From contig CANQHI010000005.1 in the NCBI GenBank assembly GCA_947623725.1, positions 1 to 59,148 on the forward strand: a DNA stretch of 59,148 nucleotides. The letters run 5' to 3'. Both the position numbers and the translations under genes were made by a program. The notes below the pieces were generated by a model, which worked only from the letters and a program-made list of their open reading frames with translations, did not search any database and was not told the origin of the DNA. Below, piece after piece: positions 1-59,101 of this stretch. This DNA comes from an uncultured Clostridia bacterium. Its GTDB lineage: Bacteria > Bacillota > Clostridia > TANB77 > CAG-508. Each line of letters starts with the position of its first letter. The first letter of the stretch is position 1.

Positions 1-81
1 AACCCAGGAGCATTCAACAAGACACCCACCTGTGAAAACAGGCTCTTAAAATATTTAATCTTACGGCTAATGTGGGGGTTT

Positions 82-7352: not shown

Positions 7353-8792
7353 TTAATTGCTTTCTAATAAAGCATGATACTCTGTTGATTTTTTGTAGTT
7401 TGCTTCAACTTCTTTTTCAGACAATCCTTTACTATATAGCCTTAATGCATAACAGTTTAATTTTGAATAATTCCATGCATAATTTTCGTATTCTTCATTA
7501 ATCCTTCCAATTGTAAAACAATTAAAAGAATTTAAAAGTTCATTTGTGAAAATATCCCATTGTACTTTATTAAAATCTGCATCATACACTTTCTTACCAT
7601 TTATGTAACATTTATAACTGTAAAATTCTCCACTTTTATTAAAACTTGATCCATCACTATAAACCCCATTTTCACTATTCTTATTTTGACTCTTTGAAGT
7701 GTCCAATGTAATCGTTATGTAACAAGGTTTATTAGGCTCAAATTCAGTTTCTGATAAACTATTAACTACATTCCACTGGTACGATTTATGACAATAGTCA
7801 GACAATTCTCTACACTGTTTATATCCACCATTAACAGACCATTCTATACCTGGATTACTTGCATTTCCATTATTATGAACAATCCCAAATCTAAACCATG
7901 ACCACTCATTACTATCTTTAATTCCATAATAGAATAAACCATTACAATATCCATTAAACTTTTCATTATTAGAAATCCAATAATTATTTCCTAGGTTCCA
8001 ACTTCCATAAAATTCAAATGTAAATCCTTGTTTTGACAATGCCTCTTTTTGTTCTTGTTTATCATATTGTATTGTAATATAATCATCAACTCCATCAAAA
8101 TTAAATGATGTACTTGTTAATCCACTTTCATTTGTTCCTTCTTCACTAAAGTTATGTAATTCTACTCCTGTCCCTAATTGTTTCTCAATATCTTCTTTAC
8201 TTTGTCCTGTTCCTTTATCTATTATTGATGAATCTATATTTATTATTAAATTATCTTTTACTGCTAGCATATCTCCTGCTGACCATGATTTATATTTTCC
8301 TTCTTCTAATTGAATTATTTCTCCTGTTTCATAATTTACTAGCCAATTATAATTTGCATTTCCATATCCACTTAATTCTGTTCCTTTTTCTACATAATAC
8401 CAACCATTGTCATATTGTTTTCCAGTATTTTCTACTTTTACTATATGCCAATTATATGAATTTTCTATGTTTTTTTCTTTTAACTCATCTCCTAATCTTT
8501 CCGAGCTTACATTTTCTAAATATTTACCTAATTGTACCGAGATTACATTTTGTCCTAAATATTCTCTTTCACTCTCTAAATTATACTTTTCTACTGTTGT
8601 TTTTGCTCTTTTAAACAATCCATTTTGGCTTAAAGCTGTAGTTAAAGTTACTCCTGTTAATATTAAGAGTATTATTATCGTTATTACTAATGCTACCAAG
8701 GTGATTCCACATTCTTTATAATTTACTTTTCTCATTATTTTTTGCTTTCTTACTGATTCTTTTTTTATAAACTTTATTTTTTTATTCATCAT
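7353..8792 (-). CDS. Pilin-like-anchored protein, paralog 1, with a LamG/concanavalin-like C-terminal region
   Basis: N-terminus is ...RKVNYKECGITLVALVITIIILLILTGVTLTTALSQNGLFKRAK. It resembles a class III (prepilin) signal but has Ala, not Glu, at +5. FNFDGVDDYITI is a typical LamG-like motif. Start chosen at the ATG at 8792 after AAAAGGAGATTTT. Confidence 0.7.
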   Translation of the reverse strand: MMNKKIKFIKKESVRKQKIMRKVNYKECGITLVALVITIIILLILTGVTLTTALSQNGLFKRAKTTVEKYNLESEREYLGQNVISVQLGKYLENVSSERLGDELKEKNIENSYNWHIVKVENTGKQYDNGWYYVEKGTELSGYGNANYNWLVNYETGEIIQLEEGKYKSWSAGDMLAVKDNLIINIDSSIIDKGTGQSKEDIEKQLGTGVELHNFSEEGTNESGLTSTSFNFDGVDDYITIQYDKQEQKEALSKQGFTFEFYGSWNLGNNYWISNNEKFNGYCNGLFYYGIKDSNEWSWFRFGIVHNNGNASNPGIEWSVNGGYKQCRELSDYCHKSYQWNVVNSLSETEFEPNKPCYITITLDTSKSQNKNSENGVYSDGSSFNKSGEFYSYKCYINGKKVYDADFNKVQWDIFTNELLNSFNCFTIGRINEEYENYAWNYSKLNCYALRLYSKGLSEKEVEANYKKSTEYHALLESN

Positions 8793-8842
8793 AAAATCTC
8801 CTTTTATTATCAATACTTTACAAGTAATTTTATACACAAATT

Positions 8843-9039
8843 TTTTTATTAATTAAAAAGCTTAATAAAAAAACTATAAATCTTATAACTCAACTTTTTC
8901 AATGAGTTTATAAAATTTATAGTTTTTTATTTGTTATTAAATTGTAATAATTTTATTTTTCTAAAATCTTGTTAAAATATTATATTTATGATAAATTTTA
9001 TTTATATTCATTTTTATTAAGCTTTTTAATTAATTATAA
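8843..9039. promoter_or_regulatory. Putative invertible segment (switch L1) bounded by inverted arm-core-arm sites
   Basis: Site 8843-8871 is TTTTTATTAA/TTAAAAAGC/TTAATAAAAA. Site 9011-9039 is TTTTTATTAA/GCTTTTTAA/TTAATTATAA. They form a 24-nt perfect inverted repeat. The interior holds hairpin 8868-8928 and the promoter-like TTGTTA-17-TAAATT (8969-8997, + strand). Confidence 0.55.
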
Positions 9040-9065
9040 TATATTTATTTATCTATTTTTATCAA

Positions 9066-10320
9066 TTAATTATCTACTACTAGCTTAAAACTAACAACAC
9101 CATCTGTTTCATTTTTTTCTAATCTATAACCACTTGATGTCAAATCAATAGAAACCATTGGTCGAAGTGAATTTTGTGCACCAACTTCATATCCGATGTG
9201 CAGTACATACATTCGCACCTGCAACTCGATATGCATCAGTAAAATAGAATACAGCTTGTAATCCAAAGTCACAATTATCATCATATAAATGAACATAACG
9301 CCCTGCCAAGTAATAACTAACACCAAAATAATCTAAACCATCCTCTTTTTTTAATAACAAATCATAATATTTAGGATTTATAAATTCACTTTGTCTATTA
9401 AGATAATCATGTCCATAGAATGATTCTCTAAATGTTAAATTACTATTTCCCGTTTCATTATTAGTTTTATATCCATTCTCTTGTTCCCACATCAGGCATT
9501 CTTTATCACTTCCATTCTCTGTACCATCAACCTCATTATATTCATACATCCATTTTGAATCATATTCTTCCCACATTTTAGGATATTTTAGACTTGTATA
9601 TGTTGTTTTACTTCCTCCAAAATGCATCTTTCCTTCATCATTTTCAAACCAACCACTAGGATCATACTTATATTTTCTATAATCATAATTGCTTACCTTT
9701 TGTATATCACTTCTTCTTAAATTTGCTACACTTATTCCATTTTTCATTTTACCATTTTCATCATATTGTCCATAACATTGTCTACATATCTCATTTATTG
9801 CCCATACGCCATTATTATATCCTGTTGCTCCTCTTAATGTTAAGGTTTCATTTGTTGGTCTACTTGATATTAATCTTATTGTCTTTGTATATTTATTATA
9901 ATCCCAGATTCTCCAATCCAAGTCTTCTGTTGTAAATTTTTGATCTCCATTTTCTTCTGCATTTACAATTGTATTACCATCATTATCTTGTTGTGAAGTT
10001 AATCCTGATGTTATACTTTTTATTATAAATGAACTGGTATCATTTTTTTCTATTGGTTCATATCCTTCTACATAACATCCTACATAGTCATTATAATCTA
10101 TTGATATCTCATCTAACTCTTCTGCTATACTATCCAATGCTAATTGTTCTTGTTTTTCTGACTCTTGATATTCTTTTACTGCCTTTTTTGCCATTTTAAA
10201 CAATCCATTTTGCCCTAATGCTGTAGTTAAAGTTACTCCTGCTAGAATCAATAATAATATTATTGTTATTACCAAAGCTACCAATGTAATACCTTTTTCT
10301 TTATAATTTACTTTTCTCAT
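9066..10320 (-). pseudogene. Pilin-like-anchored protein, paralog 2, frame broken near 9193-9195
   Basis: Same N-terminus (MRKVNYKEKGITLVALVITIILLLILAGVTLTTALGQNGLF). Frame A stops at 9187. Frame B (9066..9326) supplies the family C-terminus ...NSLRPMVSIDLTSSGYRLEK..., which matches paralog 3. Removing one base at CAT-CGG-ATA joins them. Confidence 0.7.
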
Positions 10321-10346
10321 CCTTTGCACCTCTAACTTCATTAATT

Positions 10347-10567
10347 TTTTTATTAATCTAAAAACTTAATAAAAAAAATAATTAAACATTTATAGACCTT
10401 GTATTATAGATTCGAAGCTAGAATCCAGTTAAATTTTTTATAAAAATTTAACTAAAATTTTGGTCAATAAAGTTTAATTATTTTTTATTTTATACTTGTT
10501 TAAATATTTATGTTATGATAATATTCTTATATATAAAATTTTTATTAAGTTTTTAGATTAATAATTT
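10347..10567. promoter_or_regulatory. Putative invertible segment (switch L2)
   Basis: Site 10347-10375 is TTTTTATTAA/TCTAAAAAC/TTAATAAAAA. Site 10539-10567 is TTTTTATTAA/GTTTTTAGA/TTAATAATTT. They form a 26-nt perfect inverted repeat. Promoter-like TTGTTT-17-TAATAT with TGn lies at 10496-10524 (+). Confidence 0.55.
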
Positions 10568-10968
10568 TATGGTGCCGGATTAATTTTTATTTCTTTAGGC
10601 TTTATTTTTTTTACATTTTTAGATAATTCATATGTTTGATTCTCATTCCATCTCATAACTTTTATATTTTTATAAATATCAAGTACTTCTTGATACTTAT
10701 CGCGTTCTTCTTCCCAAACTGAATCTGGAATTTTATCAAAAGCATCAAACATTTTTTCAGCTTCTGCTAAATATATCACTTGTTCTTGTGGAGACATTTT
10801 GTCATATTTTTTTGCAAATTCTGCAAGATTATCTAGACTAGCATTTGCTTTAATAAATGTAAAAAAATCTTTAACTTTAATGCCAGCCATTTGTATTTGC
10901 ATAACAGCCATTACAATTAAAATAACTATGAAAATTAATAATAAAAATATTATTGCTAAAATAGTCAT
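10567..10968 (-). CDS. Hypothetical N-terminally anchored protein
   Basis: 133-aa ORF with a hydrophobic N-terminus. No recognisable family. Confidence 0.5.
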   Translation of the reverse strand: MTILAIIFLLLIFIVILIVMAVMQIQMAGIKVKDFFTFIKANASLDNLAEFAKKYDKMSPQEQVIYLAEAEKMFDAFDKIPDSVWEEERDKYQEVLDIYKNIKVMRWNENQTYELSKNVKKIKPKEIKINPAP

Positions 10969-14690: not shown

Positions 14691-14726
14691 AATTATCATT
14701 CCTTTCTTTATATAATTCATTAATTA

Positions 14727-14854
14727 AAAGATAAATATAGTTATTTTTTCATGCCTTGTTGTCGCTGAAAAGTGATAAATCACTTTTCGCTCCATTCGCG
14801 GGCTTCGCCCTTGAGCGCTACGCGGCTATTCAAAAATAACTATATTTATCTTTT
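14727..14854. repeat. GC-rich insert flanked by 23-bp perfect inverted repeats in the mcsB-clpC spacer
   Basis: 14727-14749 (aaaagataaatatagttattttt) is the reverse complement of 14832-14854. The interior is far more GC-rich than its surroundings and contains the palindrome GAAAAGTGAT-nn-ATCACTTTTC. Confidence 0.85.
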
Positions 14855-14876
14855 TAATAGCCACAAATTATAACAA

Positions 14877-34909: not shown

Positions 34910-36202
34910 CTAATTATATTTAATTAATTTGAATTTCACAGTTTCATCTTCTTCAACTTTTTCTAAATCGTATCCACTAGATATTAAGTTGATACTAACT
35001 ATTGGGCGAAGTGCACTTCCCTGACACCAAACCTGATTCCAAGTCTCAATCATAGACCTACCTCCTATATCTTCCGAAGTGATAAAACCATTACTCCCCT
35101 CTACCGTACATATACCAAACTCACCATGATCCACAAATAAATGAGTATATCGACACGAAAGCCAGTAAGTCATATAATGCTTGTCAAATAAGATATCCTT
35201 ATATTTCTCATCTTTGAATTCTTCGTTCGAATATTTATGCCCGATACTACTCGATTGTTTTAGTTCCACATTATCACAACTTTTTTGGGCTGTATCAACT
35301 TTCATATTATCATTTTCTAGTTCCCATATCAAGCCTTCTTTATCTTCTCCCACTCCTTCTCCATCTTTATATTCATAAGACCACTCTTCATCTTTTTCCC
35401 ACATTACTGGATAATAACAATTACTTTCATATTTATGAGTACTTCCATAAGATATATCTCCACTTGAATCATATTGCCACCCATTCTCTCTATTTCCAAG
35501 CTTATGCTTATACTGGGTAAAATCATAAGTACTTACATTTTGTATATCACTTCTTTTTAAATTTGCTACTGATATTCCTCTTTTCATTTGATTATTTTCA
35601 TCATATTGTCCATAACATTGTCTACATATTTCATTTACTGCCCACACTCCGTTATTATATCCTGTTGCTCCTTTTAATGTTAATGTTGCCTCTGTTGGTT
35701 TATCTGATATTAATCTTATTGTTTTTGTATATTTATCATAATCCCAGATTCTCCATTCTAATTCTTCTGTTGTAAATTTTTGATCTCCATTTGTTTCTAC
35801 ACCATCAATTGTATTACCATTTTCACCTTGATTTGAAGTCACTCCTGATGTTTCACTTTTTATTATAAATTCACTTCCTGTTGTTTTTCCTGTTGGCTCG
35901 TATCCTTTTACATATGCTCCTACATAATCATTATAATCTATTGATATTTTTTCCATCTCTTCTGCTATACTATCCAATGCTGATTGTTCTTGTTTTTCTG
36001 CCTCTTGATATTCATTTACTGCTTTTTTTGCCATTCTAAACAATCCATTTTCACTTAATGCTGTATTTATTGTTATTCCTGCTAATATTAATAGTATTAT
36101 TATGGTTATTACTAGTGCTACTAATGTGATTCCTTTTTCTTTATGATTTATTTTTCTCCTATTGTGCATTTTATTTTCTTTTACATTATCCTTATTTTTC
36201 AT
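34910..36202 (-). CDS. Pilin-like-anchored protein, paralog 3 (intact counterpart of paralog 2)
   Basis: ...HKEKGITLVALVITIIILLILAGITINTALSENGLFRMAKKAV... with C-terminal YWLSCRY...ALRPIVSINL. ATG follows AAAGGAGAACTAAC. Confidence 0.75.
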   Translation of the reverse strand: MKNKDNVKENKMHNRRKINHKEKGITLVALVITIIILLILAGITINTALSENGLFRMAKKAVNEYQEAEKQEQSALDSIAEEMEKISIDYNDYVGAYVKGYEPTGKTTGSEFIIKSETSGVTSNQGENGNTIDGVETNGDQKFTTEELEWRIWDYDKYTKTIRLISDKPTEATLTLKGATGYNNGVWAVNEICRQCYGQYDENNQMKRGISVANLKRSDIQNVSTYDFTQYKHKLGNRENGWQYDSSGDISYGSTHKYESNCYYPVMWEKDEEWSYEYKDGEGVGEDKEGLIWELENDNMKVDTAQKSCDNVELKQSSSIGHKYSNEEFKDEKYKDILFDKHYMTYWLSCRYTHLFVDHGEFGICTVEGSNGFITSEDIGGRSMIETWNQVWCQGSALRPIVSINLISSGYDLEKVEEDETVKFKLIKYN

Positions 36203-36317: not shown

Positions 36318-36346
36318 ATTTTATCAATACTAAAGTATTAAGTCAA
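36318..36346 (-). promoter_or_regulatory. Promoter-like element between switch L3 and gene 3
   Basis: The minus strand has TTGACT, a 17-nt spacer and TAAAAT with an upstream TGn. The same block is conserved at 58850-58878. Confidence 0.45.
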
Positions 36347-36372: not shown

Positions 36373-36569
36373 TTTTTATTAAGTAATAAACTTAATAAAA
36401 AAGCTATAAATTTTATAATCCATATATTTCAACGAATTAATAAGATTCATAACTTTTATTTTTTACTAATTTGTAATAATTTTCTTTATCTATATTATTG
36501 CTTAACTGCTTATATTTATTATATAAATTTATTTATACTATTTTTATTAAGTTTATTACTTAATTATTT
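36373..36569. promoter_or_regulatory. Putative invertible segment (switch L3)
   Basis: Site 36373-36401 is TTTTTATTAA/GTAATAAAC/TTAATAAAAA. Site 36541-36569 is TTTTTATTAA/GTTTATTAC/TTAATTATTT. They form a 24-nt perfect inverted repeat. Promoter-like TTGCTT-18-TATAAA lies at 36498-36527 (+). Confidence 0.55.
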
Positions 36570-36786
36570 TTTTCTGTAATTTTTGTTACTTAAAATTAAA
36601 TTCTAATCTTGTTTTCAGTAAAAAAATCAAATTATACTTTAAAACTTAAAAATTATATCAAATTGATATAATTATTTTTTTTATTTAACATTTATCTGTA
36701 TATTTTTTCTTAATTTGGAAATATTAACTATAAAATTGTTTAGAAGTACTTACATCTTCTAAAAAAGAAAGGATTTTAGTTTTATT

Positions 36787-36999
36787 ATGGGTATTGAAAA
36801 ACATATTCAAGTTACAGGTAAATCAACTGTTTCATGGAAGGACGCAATTGTTCAAACTGTTGAGGAGGTATCAAAAACAATTAATTTTGTAACATCAATT
36901 AAGATTCTTGAACAACGTGCAAAAATAACCGTAAATAAAATAACTGAATACTATGTTGATTTAGATATTACATTTATGGTTGAACAAAAAAATTCATAA
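36787..36999 (+). CDS. Dodecin-family protein
   Basis: 70 aa. KHIQVTGKSTVSWKDAIVQTVEEVSKT...ITEYYVDLDITF matches the dodecin pattern. Confidence 0.7.
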   Translation: MGIEKHIQVTGKSTVSWKDAIVQTVEEVSKTINFVTSIKILEQRAKITVNKITEYYVDLDITFMVEQKNS

Positions 37000-37040
37000 T
37001 TTATTTTACAAAACATTATGAGAAAGGAGATAAATATACT

Positions 37041-37484
37041 ATGAATCCCACTGATACATCAAAAGAGTATGGAGAATATGTAAAAAAGAAAGCTCCAAAT
37101 TCACCTATTTTAAAAGATTGTTTCAATGCTTTCTGGGTTGGTGGATTAATATGCTCTATTGGTCAATTAATATTTTTTTATTGCAAATTTAAAGGTTTAG
37201 ATCAGACAGCATCATCTACAGTAGTTTCAATTTGTTTAATCCTTATATCTGTAATTCTAACTTCTTTAAATATATTTAATAGAATAGGAAAATTTGCAGG
37301 TGCTGGTTCACTTATCCCTATTACTGGATTTGCTAATTCAATTGTTTCACCTTCTATCGAATATAAATCTGAAGGTTATGTTATGGGTGTTGGCGCAAAA
37401 ATGTTTACAGTAGCAGGACCTGTTTTAGTTTATGGAATTTCTGCATCAGTAATTATTGGAATTATTGCTTGTTTATTCATATAA
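37041..37484 (+). CDS. spoVAC: Stage V sporulation protein AC
   Basis: YVKKKAPNSPILKDCFNAFWVGGLICSIGQ...ITGFANS. Operon context fits. Confidence 0.9.
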   Translation: MNPTDTSKEYGEYVKKKAPNSPILKDCFNAFWVGGLICSIGQLIFFYCKFKGLDQTASSTVVSICLILISVILTSLNIFNRIGKFAGAGSLIPITGFANSIVSPSIEYKSEGYVMGVGAKMFTVAGPVLVYGISASVIIGIIACLFI

Positions 37485-48066: not shown

Positions 48067-48636
48067 TTATATGTCAATTATTTTTTTCGCACAGATATAT
48101 CTTAATTTATTATCTAAATCTTTTATGTATGTAAATAATTTTAAATATTGTTCATAGTTATTATTAACTTTTATAATATTTTTTAAACTAGTTTTTTCTA
48201 TTATTTTGTTTGAAATAACTTTATATACTCGTCTTTCATTATTAACAGTATAAACAATTTTTTCACCTAGTTCTATATCCTTTAAATTCGCAAAATAATT
48301 ATTCTTATGTCCATAATTGTAAGCTATTAAAGCAACATTGTTTCCCATAATATTACTTTCCTTAAAGTGACCTATATATCCGTCATCAGGTATATCTTCA
48401 TTCATCTGCTTAATATTGGCCTCAAGTTTTATACTATCTATCTGTAATGTCCATTCCTTTATATCATTAATATTAGGCTCAGATATGCTATTTTCTATAT
48501 TATTTTCTTCCGAGATTAATTCACTTGTTTCAATAGTTTTCATTGAGAAATTTATAAAAAAAATTATGATTATAAAGATTATTGAAGAAATTAATACTGA
48601 TAAAATATTTACATTGAATTTATTAAAATTAATCAT
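48067..48636 (-). CDS. Sortase-like protein lacking the canonical TLxTC cysteine
   Basis: N-terminal TM, then W.L.I..I.L.A.I, ...GH..., FANL..IELGEKIVY...YKV, and LKLFTY where sortases have LTLxTC. An Arg lies 9 residues downstream. Confidence 0.55.
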   Translation of the reverse strand: MINFNKFNVNILSVLISSIIFIIIIFFINFSMKTIETSELISEENNIENSISEPNINDIKEWTLQIDSIKLEANIKQMNEDIPDDGYIGHFKESNIMGNNVALIAYNYGHKNNYFANLKDIELGEKIVYTVNNERRVYKVISNKIIEKTSLKNIIKVNNNYEQYLKLFTYIKDLDNKLRYICAKKIIDI

Positions 48637-48703
48637 ATAAATATTTTACCAGTATTTTACAATTTTGTAAATAGATTTTATTATTTTTTATTTGAAATTA
48701 ATA

Positions 48704-49543
48704 TTAATCTATTAGCTTTTTTAATTCATTTTCCTCTATTCCAACTAATTCTGATATATAACTAATATCTTTTCCTTCTTTAATTAATTTTTTTGCTATT
48801 TCTAACTTTCCTTTTTTATAACCATATAGTTCTATTGAATGTTCATCTCTTATTGCTTTTTCTCTTAAAAATTGCAATCTCTCCATCTTCTCATCTTCAC
48901 TTAATTCTTTTACTGTTATTACACATTTTTCTATTTCTTTATTTTCTTTCATTATCTCCTTAACCTCCTTTGAGTTCGGATTATCTAGAAATAGCATCCA
49001 TTGTGCTTTCTTATTTTTCTTGTCTTTTTCATACTCTTTGAGTGCTTTCCTTAAATTTATTATATTTATTTCTATTAGCTCTGTCAATATCTTTTCACGA
49101 TTTTTCGTCTCTATTAGTTTCCACTTTGTTTCCATTTCATCTATATCTTTTAGTTCTTCTATTTCAAAATCTATTATTGCTATTAATACTGTCCTTTTTA
49201 CATTTTCATATGGCTCTCCTCTTTTAAATTGATCTGAATACAGTCTTGTTGCATAATATAATATTCTCTCTATAAAATTTCCTTTATTTAATAATTGTAC
49301 TTCTACATCTACTTTCTCTTTATTATTAATTTCCAGTTCTAAGTCTAATATTCCTAATTTATCATTCGGTCTATTTCTTATTAATTCTTTATCTTCATTT
49401 ATTTTTATACTTTCTATTTTTTCTTCTAATAGTACTTCTGCAAATGCTTTCGTTATTTCTGGATTGTTTTTACTAAATAAACTTTGAAAAACAACATCTA
49501 TCTTTGGTATTAATAAATTATTTTTTCCATTTGTCATAGGCAT
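48704..49543 (-). CDS. Rpn/YhgA-like PD-(D/E)XK nuclease family protein (putative transposase-like)
   Basis: IPKIDVVFQSLF...LGILDLELE...VDVEVQL...YYATRLY pattern. Confidence 0.7.
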   Translation of the reverse strand: MPMTNGKNNLLIPKIDVVFQSLFSKNNPEITKAFAEVLLEEKIESIKINEDKELIRNRPNDKLGILDLELEINNKEKVDVEVQLLNKGNFIERILYYATRLYSDQFKRGEPYENVKRTVLIAIIDFEIEELKDIDEMETKWKLIETKNREKILTELIEINIINLRKALKEYEKDKKNKKAQWMLFLDNPNSKEVKEIMKENKEIEKCVITVKELSEDEKMERLQFLREKAIRDEHSIELYGYKKGKLEIAKKLIKEGKDISYISELVGIEENELKKLID

Positions 49544-57799: not shown

Positions 57800-58792
57800 T
57801 TAATCTTTGATTGCAGATTTTGGAATCGAAATTACAGGTCGTACACCTTCCTTATTATGGTCAAACGTAGCATTATCGAAAGTCCCTATTATACAACGTA
57901 TTGTACACACATATTTATAATTATTATCATTATTATTATCATTACCTCCACGTGCTGCCAACCAATAACCCCACACATCGTTCGTATCACCTAGAAAAAA
58001 AACCTTGTTACCCAAAATAGCTTCATTTCTTACATATACGCTAAATTCTTCACTTTCCTCACCTATTTTATACTTAACCTGCTGAGAATCGTCTTTTATT
58101 ATTGTTAACTTATCTTCTACATTACTTCCATATCTTTCATTATACGCACTTTCTAGCTGTTCTGCAGTTGGACCTCCTGCTGCTGTTACTTCTACCTCTA
58201 TCCCTTTTTCCTTTAATGCCTTTTTAACTCCATTTGCAATGCTTGTCCAATTACTCGCTCCAGTCAAATAATTTATTAATTGCTCTCTATTACCACTTAT
58301 AACATTCCCATACACTACAATTCCACTATGCATTATACCTTTTACATATGGTATTGCATTTTCTTCTAAATAGTCTGAATATATAAAATATACTTTCCCT
58401 TCACTTTCATCTGTATAATAATATTGCCAACCATGTTCAAGAACTTTACCGTTTACTATAACATCACCTAAGTTTACCGTTTGACTATCGTCTGGTTTGT
58501 TGTCTACGTTTTTTGGTATTTCTATTTTTTCTTCTGATGGTGGTACCGGTGGCTCTGGTGTTTTATCTCCATCTACTATTTTGTCTATCTCTTTTTCTAC
58601 TTCTCCTAATTTTTCTGCCTCATCTGATTCTGATTCCTTATAATTTTCTCCTGCATATTTTGCCCTTTGAAATAGTCCATTTTGTCCTAGTGCTGTTGTT
58701 AATGTTACTCCTGCTAATATTAATAGTATTATTATTGTTATTACTAATGCTATTAATGTTATTCCTTTTTCTTTATAATTTTCTTTTCCCAT
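57800..58792 (-). CDS. Pilin-like-anchored protein, paralog 4
   Basis: MGKENYKEKGITLIALVITIIILLILAGVTLTTALGQNGLFQRAK... with C-terminal YWLAARG...EGVRPVISIP. ATG follows AAGGGGGAAAATCAAAAG. Confidence 0.75.
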   Translation of the reverse strand: MGKENYKEKGITLIALVITIIILLILAGVTLTTALGQNGLFQRAKYAGENYKESESDEAEKLGEVEKEIDKIVDGDKTPEPPVPPSEEKIEIPKNVDNKPDDSQTVNLGDVIVNGKVLEHGWQYYYTDESEGKVYFIYSDYLEENAIPYVKGIMHSGIVVYGNVISGNREQLINYLTGASNWTSIANGVKKALKEKGIEVEVTAAGGPTAEQLESAYNERYGSNVEDKLTIIKDDSQQVKYKIGEESEEFSVYVRNEAILGNKVFFLGDTNDVWGYWLAARGGNDNNNDNNYKYVCTIRCIIGTFDNATFDHNKEGVRPVISIPKSAIKD

Positions 58793-58849: not shown

Positions 58850-58878
58850 ATTTTATTATTTATAAAGTATTAAGTCAA
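58850..58878 (-). promoter_or_regulatory. Promoter-like element between switch L4 and gene 4
   Basis: The minus strand has TTGACT, a 17-nt spacer and TAAAAT. It is homologous to 36318-36346. Confidence 0.45.
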
Positions 58879-58904: not shown

Positions 58905-59101
58905 ATTTTATTAAGTAGAAAGATTAATAAAAAAGTATAAAATCTTGCAATTCATTTATTCCAATGATTATGCAAAATTTTATACTTTACTTTTTTACGA
59001 TTTTGTAATAATTTTTATCTTTATTTTTTTCTTATAATTGACTATATTATGCTATATTTTATATATATAATTTTTTTATTAATCTTTCTAATTAATAATA
59101 T
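58905..59101. promoter_or_regulatory. Putative invertible segment (switch L4)
   Basis: Site 58905-58933 is ATTTTATTAA/GTAGAAAGA/TTAATAAAAA. Site 59073-59101 is TTTTTATTAA/TCTTTCTAA/TTAATAATAT. 25 of 26 positions are inverted-repeat matches. Promoter-like TTGACT-18-TATATA lies at 59038-59067 (+). Confidence 0.5.

Follow-up and report, generated by a model that had tools for sequence, protein, structure and literature searches.

The window analysed here covers positions 1 to 59,148 of contig CANQHI010000005.1 (assembly GCA_947623725.1) from an uncultured Clostridia bacterium. It is chromosomal DNA of a spore-forming member of the Clostridia with a G+C content of ~26%, and Pfam searches identified ctsR-mcsA-mcsB-clpC, spo0A, spoVAC/AD, sipL, and ribosomal protein genes. 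Four short segments in this DNA, L1 (8848-9034, 187 bp), L2 (10352-10562, 211 bp), L3 (36378-36564, 187 bp), and L4 (58910-59096, 187 bp), each lie immediately upstream of one minus-strand gene. The products of these genes (gene 1, 7353..8792; gene 2, 9066..10320; gene 3, 34910..36202; gene 4, 57800..58792) start with a pilin-like hydrophobic helix (KGITLVALVITIIILLILAG). The original prediction, made from the letters of the window, had read the segments as invertible promoters standing in the OFF orientation, with a promoter pointing away from the gene and a hairpin insulating the gene from upstream transcription.

Eight copies of a 20-nt site motif were found in the window as four inverted pairs, compared with 0.55 expected by chance. 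The sites have the form (TTTTT)ATTAA-N9-TTAAT, and the corresponding two-site pattern was matched at three window loci with none expected. The gene-proximal site is a 29-bp dyad with A/T runs on either side. At L1 it occupies 8843..8871 and reads TTTTTATTAA-TTAAAAAGC-TTAATAAAAA, with fully dyad-symmetric arms, and the distal site (9011..9034) reads TTTTTATTAA-GCTTTTTAA-TTAAT. The proximal and distal sites lie at 10347..10375 and 10539..10562 for L2, at 36373..36401 and 36541..36564 for L3, and at 58905..58933 and 59073..59096 for L4. In its odd length the dyad would resemble a tyrosine recombinase core site more closely than a serine invertase site, which is even and centred on 2 bp.

Bacterial assemblies, one genome per species, were scanned with the two-site DNA pattern. 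At least 100 stretches were detected, all in metagenome-assembled genomes (MAGs) of uncultured Clostridia from rabbit gut ('Lapin') and in one human-gut MAG. The family set used below consists of 131 segments drawn from the scanned assemblies and the window, 125 of which are in the alignment; 121 of the 131 copies are 186-188 nt long. Copies detected number at least 26 in MAG CANQYG, 21 in CANRLA, 14 in CANQMY, 13 in CANQCW, 12 in CANPZY, and 9 in CANQLM, and they frequently stand in tandem arrays in the order gene-cassette-gene-cassette. The spacing from cassette site to start codon is tightly distributed, with a median of 38 nt and quartiles of 36-41.5 nt. On the distal side, a same-direction open reading frame (ORF) ends a median of 73 nt past the site in 86 of the 131 loci, and 45 copies lack any such ORF of 150 amino acids or more ending within 400 nt. 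The distal flanks are not conserved. Control of a second gene on the distal side, as in a two-gene switch, was considered and rejected, only a few incidental housekeeping genes being located there. Several contigs (L018, L025, L106, L107, and others) start or end inside a cassette or at most ~50 nt away, as would be expected if invertible or repeated cassettes cause assemblies to break.

The proximal and distal sites of a copy are unequal at position 1 of the N9 core, beside the outer arm, in 64 of the 131 copies (G/T in 57, T/G in 7). L4 is among them, with G in its proximal site and T in its distal copy. This position presumably lies outside the exchanged DNA and so would mark its edge. There are 36 distinct N9 cores among the 131 copies, one of which is common to 30. 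Locus-specific cores acting as a bar to recombination between loci would fit the four window loci; the idea was rejected for the family on these core counts.

All of the promoter hexamers quoted in the original prediction are present in L1-L4. On the plus strand, pointing away from the adjacent gene in each case, the predicted L1 promoter (8969..8997) is TTGTTA (8969-8974)-17-TAAATT (8992-8997), with a predicted start at ~9004-9005; the L2 promoter (10496..10524) is TTGTTT (10496-10501)-17-TAATAT (10519-10524), starting at ~10531; and the L3 promoter (36498..36527) is TTGCTT (36498-36503)-18-TATAAA (36522-36527), starting at ~36534. The TGn extension claimed for L1 and L2 is present as TGa in both. 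The claim that the promoter is aligned in all four segments is correct for L1-L3, which have it at the family position with the −10 hexamer ending 13-14 nt before the inner arm, but not for the pair proposed at L4. That pair, TTGACT (59038-59043)-18-TATATA (59062-59067), ends 5 nt before the arm and is not conserved in the L4 sub-family. The family-aligned L4 promoter (59030..59058, plus strand, away from gene 4) is instead TCTTAT (59030-59035)-17-(TGc)TATATT (59053-59058), with a predicted start at ~59065. In Gram-positive bacteria an extended −10 element can make up for a weak −35 element in sigma-A promoters.

A generic scan of positions 8700-10700 gave 19 promoter-like pairs against 18.4 expected. 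Because such pairs occur at chance frequency, the hexamers in the window alone say little and only the relatives decide, as the original prediction had itself cautioned in naming positional conservation as its only support. The family has the sigma-A-type consensus TTGATT-17-TGcTATATT, and TcTTGaTT-N-TTATGcTATaTT is the strongest conservation in the interior of the segment. The pattern TTGnnn-16..18-TAnnnT is present in 119 of the 131 copies; the spacer is 17 nt in 112, TGn is found in 100, and the −10 hexamer stops 13-14 nt short of the inner-arm TTTTT in 100. When the 125 aligned copies were scanned by position, 89 TTGnnn/TAnnnT pairs fell in a single 10-nt bin on one strand, with at most 7 in any other bin of that strand and at most 6 on the opposite strand, so that the outward direction of the promoter is conserved. 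The predicted start is located a few bases inside the segment, from which it follows that the whole promoter would flip as one unit. As in a fimS-type inverton, the promoter as judged by its sequence lies inside the segment and points out through one end.

The L1 hairpin (8868..8928) is real, with 21-nt arms that are 95% complementary. It is AU-rich, and an A-run before the stem and a T-run after it give it the look of a terminator from both sides, with U-tracts on both strands. Its RNA folds with −18.5 kcal/mol on the plus strand (z −4.9) and −22.5 kcal/mol on the minus strand (z −7.5). The L4 hairpin (58930..58990) is similar, at −18.2 and −22.9 kcal/mol. L2 carries a composite hairpin (10373..10486), in which the outer stem of the family encloses an inserted loop region with two inner hairpins, giving −30.9 and −31.2 kcal/mol. 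The L2 segment exceeds the other three in length by 24 nt and has 78 nt between the hairpin arms, compared with 19 nt in L1; one of its inner hairpins is a perfect 12-bp stem (AGTTAAATTTTT/AAAAATTTAACT). The L3 hairpin (36398..36458) is stable only as gene-sense RNA, folding with −17.3 kcal/mol on the minus strand (z −4.3) but only −4.9 kcal/mol on the plus strand (z −0.9, not significant). A terminator-like hairpin on both strands, as had been proposed, is thus found at L1, L2, and L4 and on one strand at L3. Family median folding energies are approximately −19.5 (plus strand) and −20.5 (minus strand) kcal/mol.

Pairing was tested in the 125-sequence alignment with a hand-defined outer stem, using 15 pairs made up of the 14-pair outer stem and one flanking pair. 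Paired cells accounted for 83% of the total, compared with 39-56% when the partners were slid by 1-3 columns. Double-sided changes numbered 147 against 56.5 in shuffles, with a covariation score of 0.223 against 0.099, and compensating stem variants are seen directly (AATAAATC/GATTTATT, AAAAAATC/GATTTTTT, and AGTAATC/GATTACT). RNAalifold returned no structure from a MAFFT alignment of the family because the sub-families differ in the register of their inner stems. The gene-sense strand is the more stable in 57 copies and the other strand in 34 (p 0.004), a modest excess that comes with G-U-compatible mismatches. Drift of the sequence with pairing retained, together with this G-U strand asymmetry, favours a folded RNA over a sequence bound by protein. 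The stem is 15-25 bp long and the free energy is −18 to −23 kcal/mol. The hairpin probably stops transcription arriving from either side.

A role for the hairpin in recombination within an invertible cassette, either as a cruciform or as the site of an accessory or bending protein that confers directionality, was also weighed and is rather improbable. The hairpin is perfectly placed beside one site and has less G+C than canonical terminators, and the strong OFF bias described below needs some source of asymmetry. However, the retained pairing is better suited to a folded strand than to a sequence-specific protein site, the excess stability of the gene-sense strand points to RNA, and relatives with the same sites are found in both orientations without the hairpin. 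These relatives, 172-174 nt long, lack a strong hairpin, and we accordingly regard the hairpin as an accessory of the 187-nt family that is dispensable for recombination.

The hairpin also bears on whether the window orientation could itself be the ON state, driven by a minus-strand promoter in the hairpin or in the L2 insertion. Candidate elements are TTGAAA-18-TATAGT in the L1 hairpin (8902 to 8873), similar pairs in L3 and L4, and TTAACT-18-TATAAT in the L2 insertion (10432 to 10403), and one sub-family shows the TTGAAA loop motif repeatedly. Nevertheless, a qualifying minus-strand pair is present in only 6 of 125 copies, compared with 89 for the plus-strand promoter. The majority sub-family has a different loop, matches of this kind occur at chance frequency in this DNA, and the element would lie inside a strong stem. 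We regard an ON state in the window as extremely unlikely.

Each copy was oriented by its interior, and the 99 copies with a recognised flanking gene were scored. In 96 a pilin-like gene adjoins the hairpin end, which is the window arrangement, whereas three (L056, L019, and L072) have a gene at the promoter end. The gene, leader, and site of L056 are collinear with those of L001, L087, and L051 at 88-94% identity, whereas its interior matches L001 and L087 in reverse at 92-95%; the alignments meet in the site. The L056 leader is homologous to that of L4 in the window. In L019 the usual proximal-type outer flank (AAAAATAACA) is followed, on the promoter side, by a ribosome-binding site and a gene for a small membrane protein.

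Metagenomes scanned with a pattern that favours the flipped junction yielded further flipped loci. Human-gut contigs from three loci (L111/L113, L112/L118, and L114-116, of which L114-116 is the L072 locus) have the order promoter, site, ribosome-binding site, pilin-like gene, and the flank of L115 is collinear with that of L074 while the interior is reversed. The pattern had been a candidate for an ON-specific signature and was dropped as merely ON-enriched, about 12 OFF copies also having an A-run past the distal site. Both orientations relative to fixed flanks, as in a fimS-type inverton, thus occur at the level of the family. Since several copies combine collinear flanks with reversed interiors, the comparison indicates that inversions exactly at the ATTAA-N9-TTAAT sites have occurred repeatedly, and that the OFF orientation dominates the assembled consensus. 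The arrangement that inversion was predicted to create, with the promoter beside the gene and the hairpin behind it, is the one seen in L056, L019, L072, and the human-gut loci L111-L118.

The family has several features of non-autonomous miniature inverted-repeat transposable elements (MITEs) such as the Correia elements of Neisseria, which would have spread by transposition and not been flipped in place. Copies are uniform at 186-188 nt, have terminal inverted repeats, and number dozens per genome; many are near-identical, only 36 N9 cores serve the 131 copies, and several contigs break at or inside them. Such an origin leaves unexplained the 96:3 orientation relative to the neighbouring gene and the fixed distance to the start codon, as well as the flipping of L056 at exactly the junctions of its paralogues. 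The outer flanks differ systematically between the two ends with no common direct duplication of the kind left at a target site, and no cassette copy was present in 2.9 million viral contigs. Transposition without inversion is therefore very unlikely.

We conclude, with a probability of roughly three in four, that L1-L4 are invertible promoter cassettes (invertons) with an insulating hairpin that stand OFF in the window. Promoter activity, termination at the hairpin, and active switching at the window loci are what we infer from the conserved elements described above. In the OFF state, reading towards the gene, the distal site would be followed by a promoter that faces back upstream, then by the hairpin, the proximal site, a leader of ~38 nt, and the gene. 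The cassette would then give the gene no transcription, and the hairpin would stand between the gene and transcription from upstream. Read-through is a real threat because a same-direction ORF ends near the distal site in 86 of the 131 loci, and the hairpin would be the first structure that it meets; the distal flank and the leader have no structure beyond chance. In the ON state the hairpin would come directly after the distal site, and the promoter, now facing the gene, would precede the proximal site, the leader, and the gene, with transcription passing through the site to give a short, unstructured leader predicted to be ~75-85 nt long. The hairpin, now at the far end, would still halt read-through from the upstream gene, so that by virtue of its symmetry it would insulate in both states. 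In tandem arrays it may also halt antisense transcripts from the OFF-state promoter of the next cassette. The invertible-promoter model of the original prediction, OFF and with an insulating hairpin, is therefore largely supported as far as sequence comparison goes.

Several observations weigh against this conclusion. Neighbour-gene look-ups for the window loci returned only contigs that were identical, in the same orientation, or not covering the segment, and no flipped state of L1-L4 was seen. The one other assembly that spans a window segment (L123, 100% identical across L2) has the same orientation, and one rabbit-gut locus of a related organism is OFF in six of six assemblies. The flipped copies, which come from paralogues or other species, prove past inversions and not frequent switching. 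A generic terminator scan of 8700-10700 (at least 3 G-C pairs, loop of 3-8 nt) found nothing; the G-C pairs of the hairpin are too few, and its loop too long, for the scan to register it. Relatives of 172-174 nt share the sites and promoter, occur in both orientations, and lack a strong hairpin. No recombinase was found in the window by Pfam search of essentially all of its ORFs, nor in 730 kb around related copies by regular-expression motifs or tblastn with approximate XerD and Hin query sequences. No terminator was found within 80 nt past the distal site, downstream of the OFF-state promoter, which leaves the output of that promoter unexplained. Finally, at L3 and L4 the switch is followed downstream by a fixed promoter-like element, such that genes 3 and 4 may be transcribed or separately regulated in either orientation.

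The fixed element is a near-consensus TTGACT-17-TAAAAT on the minus strand, outside the segment, between the proximal site and the gene that it faces (36318..36346 for gene 3; 58850..58878 for gene 4). It is present in 12 of 12 copies of the sub-family with the ACTTAATAC leader motif (TTGACT in 10, TTAACT in 2), including the flipped copy L056, and is retained even where the spacer has diverged. The double-locked OFF state proposed for all four loci accordingly needs qualification. The window orientation is the common one (96 of 99), but a locked state is doubtful for L3 and L4. In MAG copies the fixed element overlaps a 7-bp palindrome, AAGTATT-N5-AATACTT, which could be an operator.

The OFF-state promoter would direct antisense transcription into the upstream paralogue at L1 and transcription towards dodecin and spoVAC at L3, where it faces, across 36565-37484, a dodecin gene (36787-36999) and the spoVAC-spoVAD-spoVAE operon. 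In the related strain L121 the gene arrangement upstream of dodecin is different. An output of this kind might be the actual function, with no inversion taking place. The sites would then be protein-binding operators, the hairpin the terminator of the upstream gene, and the product of the promoter an outward or antisense RNA. One orientation is indeed found in nearly all assemblies, transcripts from the promoter would meet no terminator before entering the 3' end of the upstream paralogue, and a recombinase is missing from the DNA searched. Flank-collinear, interior-reversed copies nevertheless occur in several lineages, with the promoter correctly spaced before the gene. Moreover, no constant antisense target is evident, the distal flanks being unconserved and 45 of the 131 copies having no same-direction ORF nearby. 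There is little likelihood that the segments never invert.

If the cassettes do invert, a site-specific recombinase is probably encoded elsewhere in the genome and acts in trans, given that none was found near the cassettes. Its identity and type are likewise inferred. Unlinked recombinases acting in trans are known, namely Mpi in Bacteroides and RecV in C. difficile.

Few flipped copies were detected in each genome. CANPZY (12 copies detected), CANQYG (26), and CABUGH (2) have one each (L056, L019, and L072), and four other MAGs have none among 9-21 detected copies; this is a hint that a genome has very few loci in the ON state, although the numbers are small and the copy counts are minimum values. 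A more far-reaching proposal is that these genomes hold a genome-wide bank of at least 26 self-contained flip cassettes, each a promoter plus a bidirectional terminator, nearly all of them OFF. Pilin-like surface proteins, which form a very large and structurally novel family, would then be expressed near-exclusively, in a manner resembling antigenic variation. The bank would be acted on by an unlinked recombinase, and antisense transcription in the OFF state would couple adjacent switches. We put this forward tentatively and consider it unlikely in its entirety. Near-exclusive expression, coupling between neighbours, or a new type of recombinase would, if true, raise the significance of the system.

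The logic of the cassette is that of a classical fimS-type promoter inverton. Like the fimS element of E. coli, which is inverted by FimB and FimE, it is a short segment between inverted repeats whose promoter drives an adjacent surface-structure gene in one orientation, with a bias to OFF. However, fimS is a single locus with 9-bp repeats and adjacent recombinase genes, whereas here there are many loci, dyad sites of 24-29 bp, a built-in hairpin, and no linked recombinase found. The polysaccharide invertons of Bacteroides fragilis, on which Mpi acts in trans, are also close in that promoter invertons are scattered in a gut commensal, serve surface variation, and are under a global recombinase that in the present family is probably unlinked as well. 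In the present case the sites are unrelated to those of B. fragilis and the genes controlled encode single proteins rather than biosynthetic operons. Correia-type MITEs share with the cassettes their short and uniform length, high copy number, terminal inverted repeats, outward promoters, and terminator-like folding, but not the fixed orientation and spacing relative to one gene family or a flipped copy with identical junctions.

In genome organisation the closest match is the mpl (P35) lipoprotein gene family of Mycoplasma penetrans, in which individual genes have invertible promoters, as summarised in PMC2268961 (citing Horino et al. 2003). To the extent of that account, both systems consist of dozens of paralogous surface-protein genes, partly in tandem at several loci, each with its own short invertible promoter and independent ON/OFF control (PMC2268961). 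The cassettes described here differ in belonging to spore-forming Clostridia, in the sequence of the sites, and in a cargo with a pilin-like N terminus instead of lipoproteins; they also carry a conserved bidirectional hairpin within the element. Within the Clostridia, the cwpV switch of C. difficile, inverted by RecV, is a segment of ~195 bp with inverted repeats of ~21 bp that is ~5% ON (PMC2784873). It likewise lies upstream of a surface-protein gene, involves in its logic an intrinsic-terminator-like hairpin, and is mostly OFF. In cwpV, however, a promoter located beyond the segment is combined with a terminator that forms in one orientation only (PMC2784873), whereas the present cassettes have the promoter within the segment and a hairpin that folds both ways except at L3. 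On account of this folding in both orientations the hairpin of the present cassettes would insulate rather than switch.

A full-text literature search for invertons or invertible promoters together with prepilin or pilin and Clostridia returned no description of an ATTAA-N9-TTAAT cassette family. The family is a previously undescribed, very abundant example of a switch of known type. Reversible variation of the surface of gut bacteria is known to arise mainly through invertible promoters, and the well-studied cases are mostly from Bacteroides, enterobacteria, and C. difficile. The present family places dozens of loci per genome under invertible-promoter logic in uncultured, spore-forming, very A+T-rich gut Clostridia of rabbit and human, at a protein family with more than 2,379 members that is without annotation or structural neighbour. 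The 187-bp design, with two sites, one promoter, and one symmetric insulator, makes testable predictions of where transcription starts and stops and provides a defined DNA substrate with which the missing recombinase could be sought. Its description could also aid annotation pipelines, which now call such regions featureless.

The cargo genes are labelled pilin-like and no more because the matches to pilins are sub-threshold or weak. The products of genes 3 and 4 score 18.3-18.5 bits with the PF07963 N-methylation motif, below the cut-off of 21.2, and those of genes 1 and 2 have no match to it. A search of NCBIfam with the cargo protein gave no match, and pilins in the PDB matched it weakly, over the helix only (E 0.11-0.55). 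Gene 1 has the pilin-like N terminus (…KECGITLVALVITIIILLIL…) and an ATG start at 8792 preceded by AAAGGAGA. Gene 2 has an apparent frameshift near its 3' end, where ORF 9187-10341 stops early and the overlapping ORF 9066-9326 supplies a conserved C terminus as in gene 3; it is either a pseudogene or affected by a sequencing error. Gene 3 has more than 2,379 homologues, and the 120 best of them (P0001-P0120) include none with a Pfam domain or source name. The AlphaFold model of its product (mean pLDDT 86.5) combines the pilin-like N-terminal helix with a second, long helix and an α/β globular domain that is modelled with confidence and for which Foldseek found no PDB neighbour at E ≤0.001. Gene 4 also has a pilin-like N terminus, and an exact-protein look-up found no identical record for the products of genes 3 and 4.

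An Rfam scan of the whole window (1-59148) gave no matches at the gathering threshold; the L13-S9 and IF3-L20 ribosomal operons usually have leader RNAs in Firmicutes. Between mcsB and clpC, a 28-nt inverted repeat that is 93% complementary (14721-14859) encloses an unusually G+C-rich core of 83 nt and is unrelated to the ATTAA-N9-TTAAT sites. On the minus strand at 48067-49543, a sortase gene adjoins a gene for a PD-(D/E)XK 'transposase' of the Rpn-like type.

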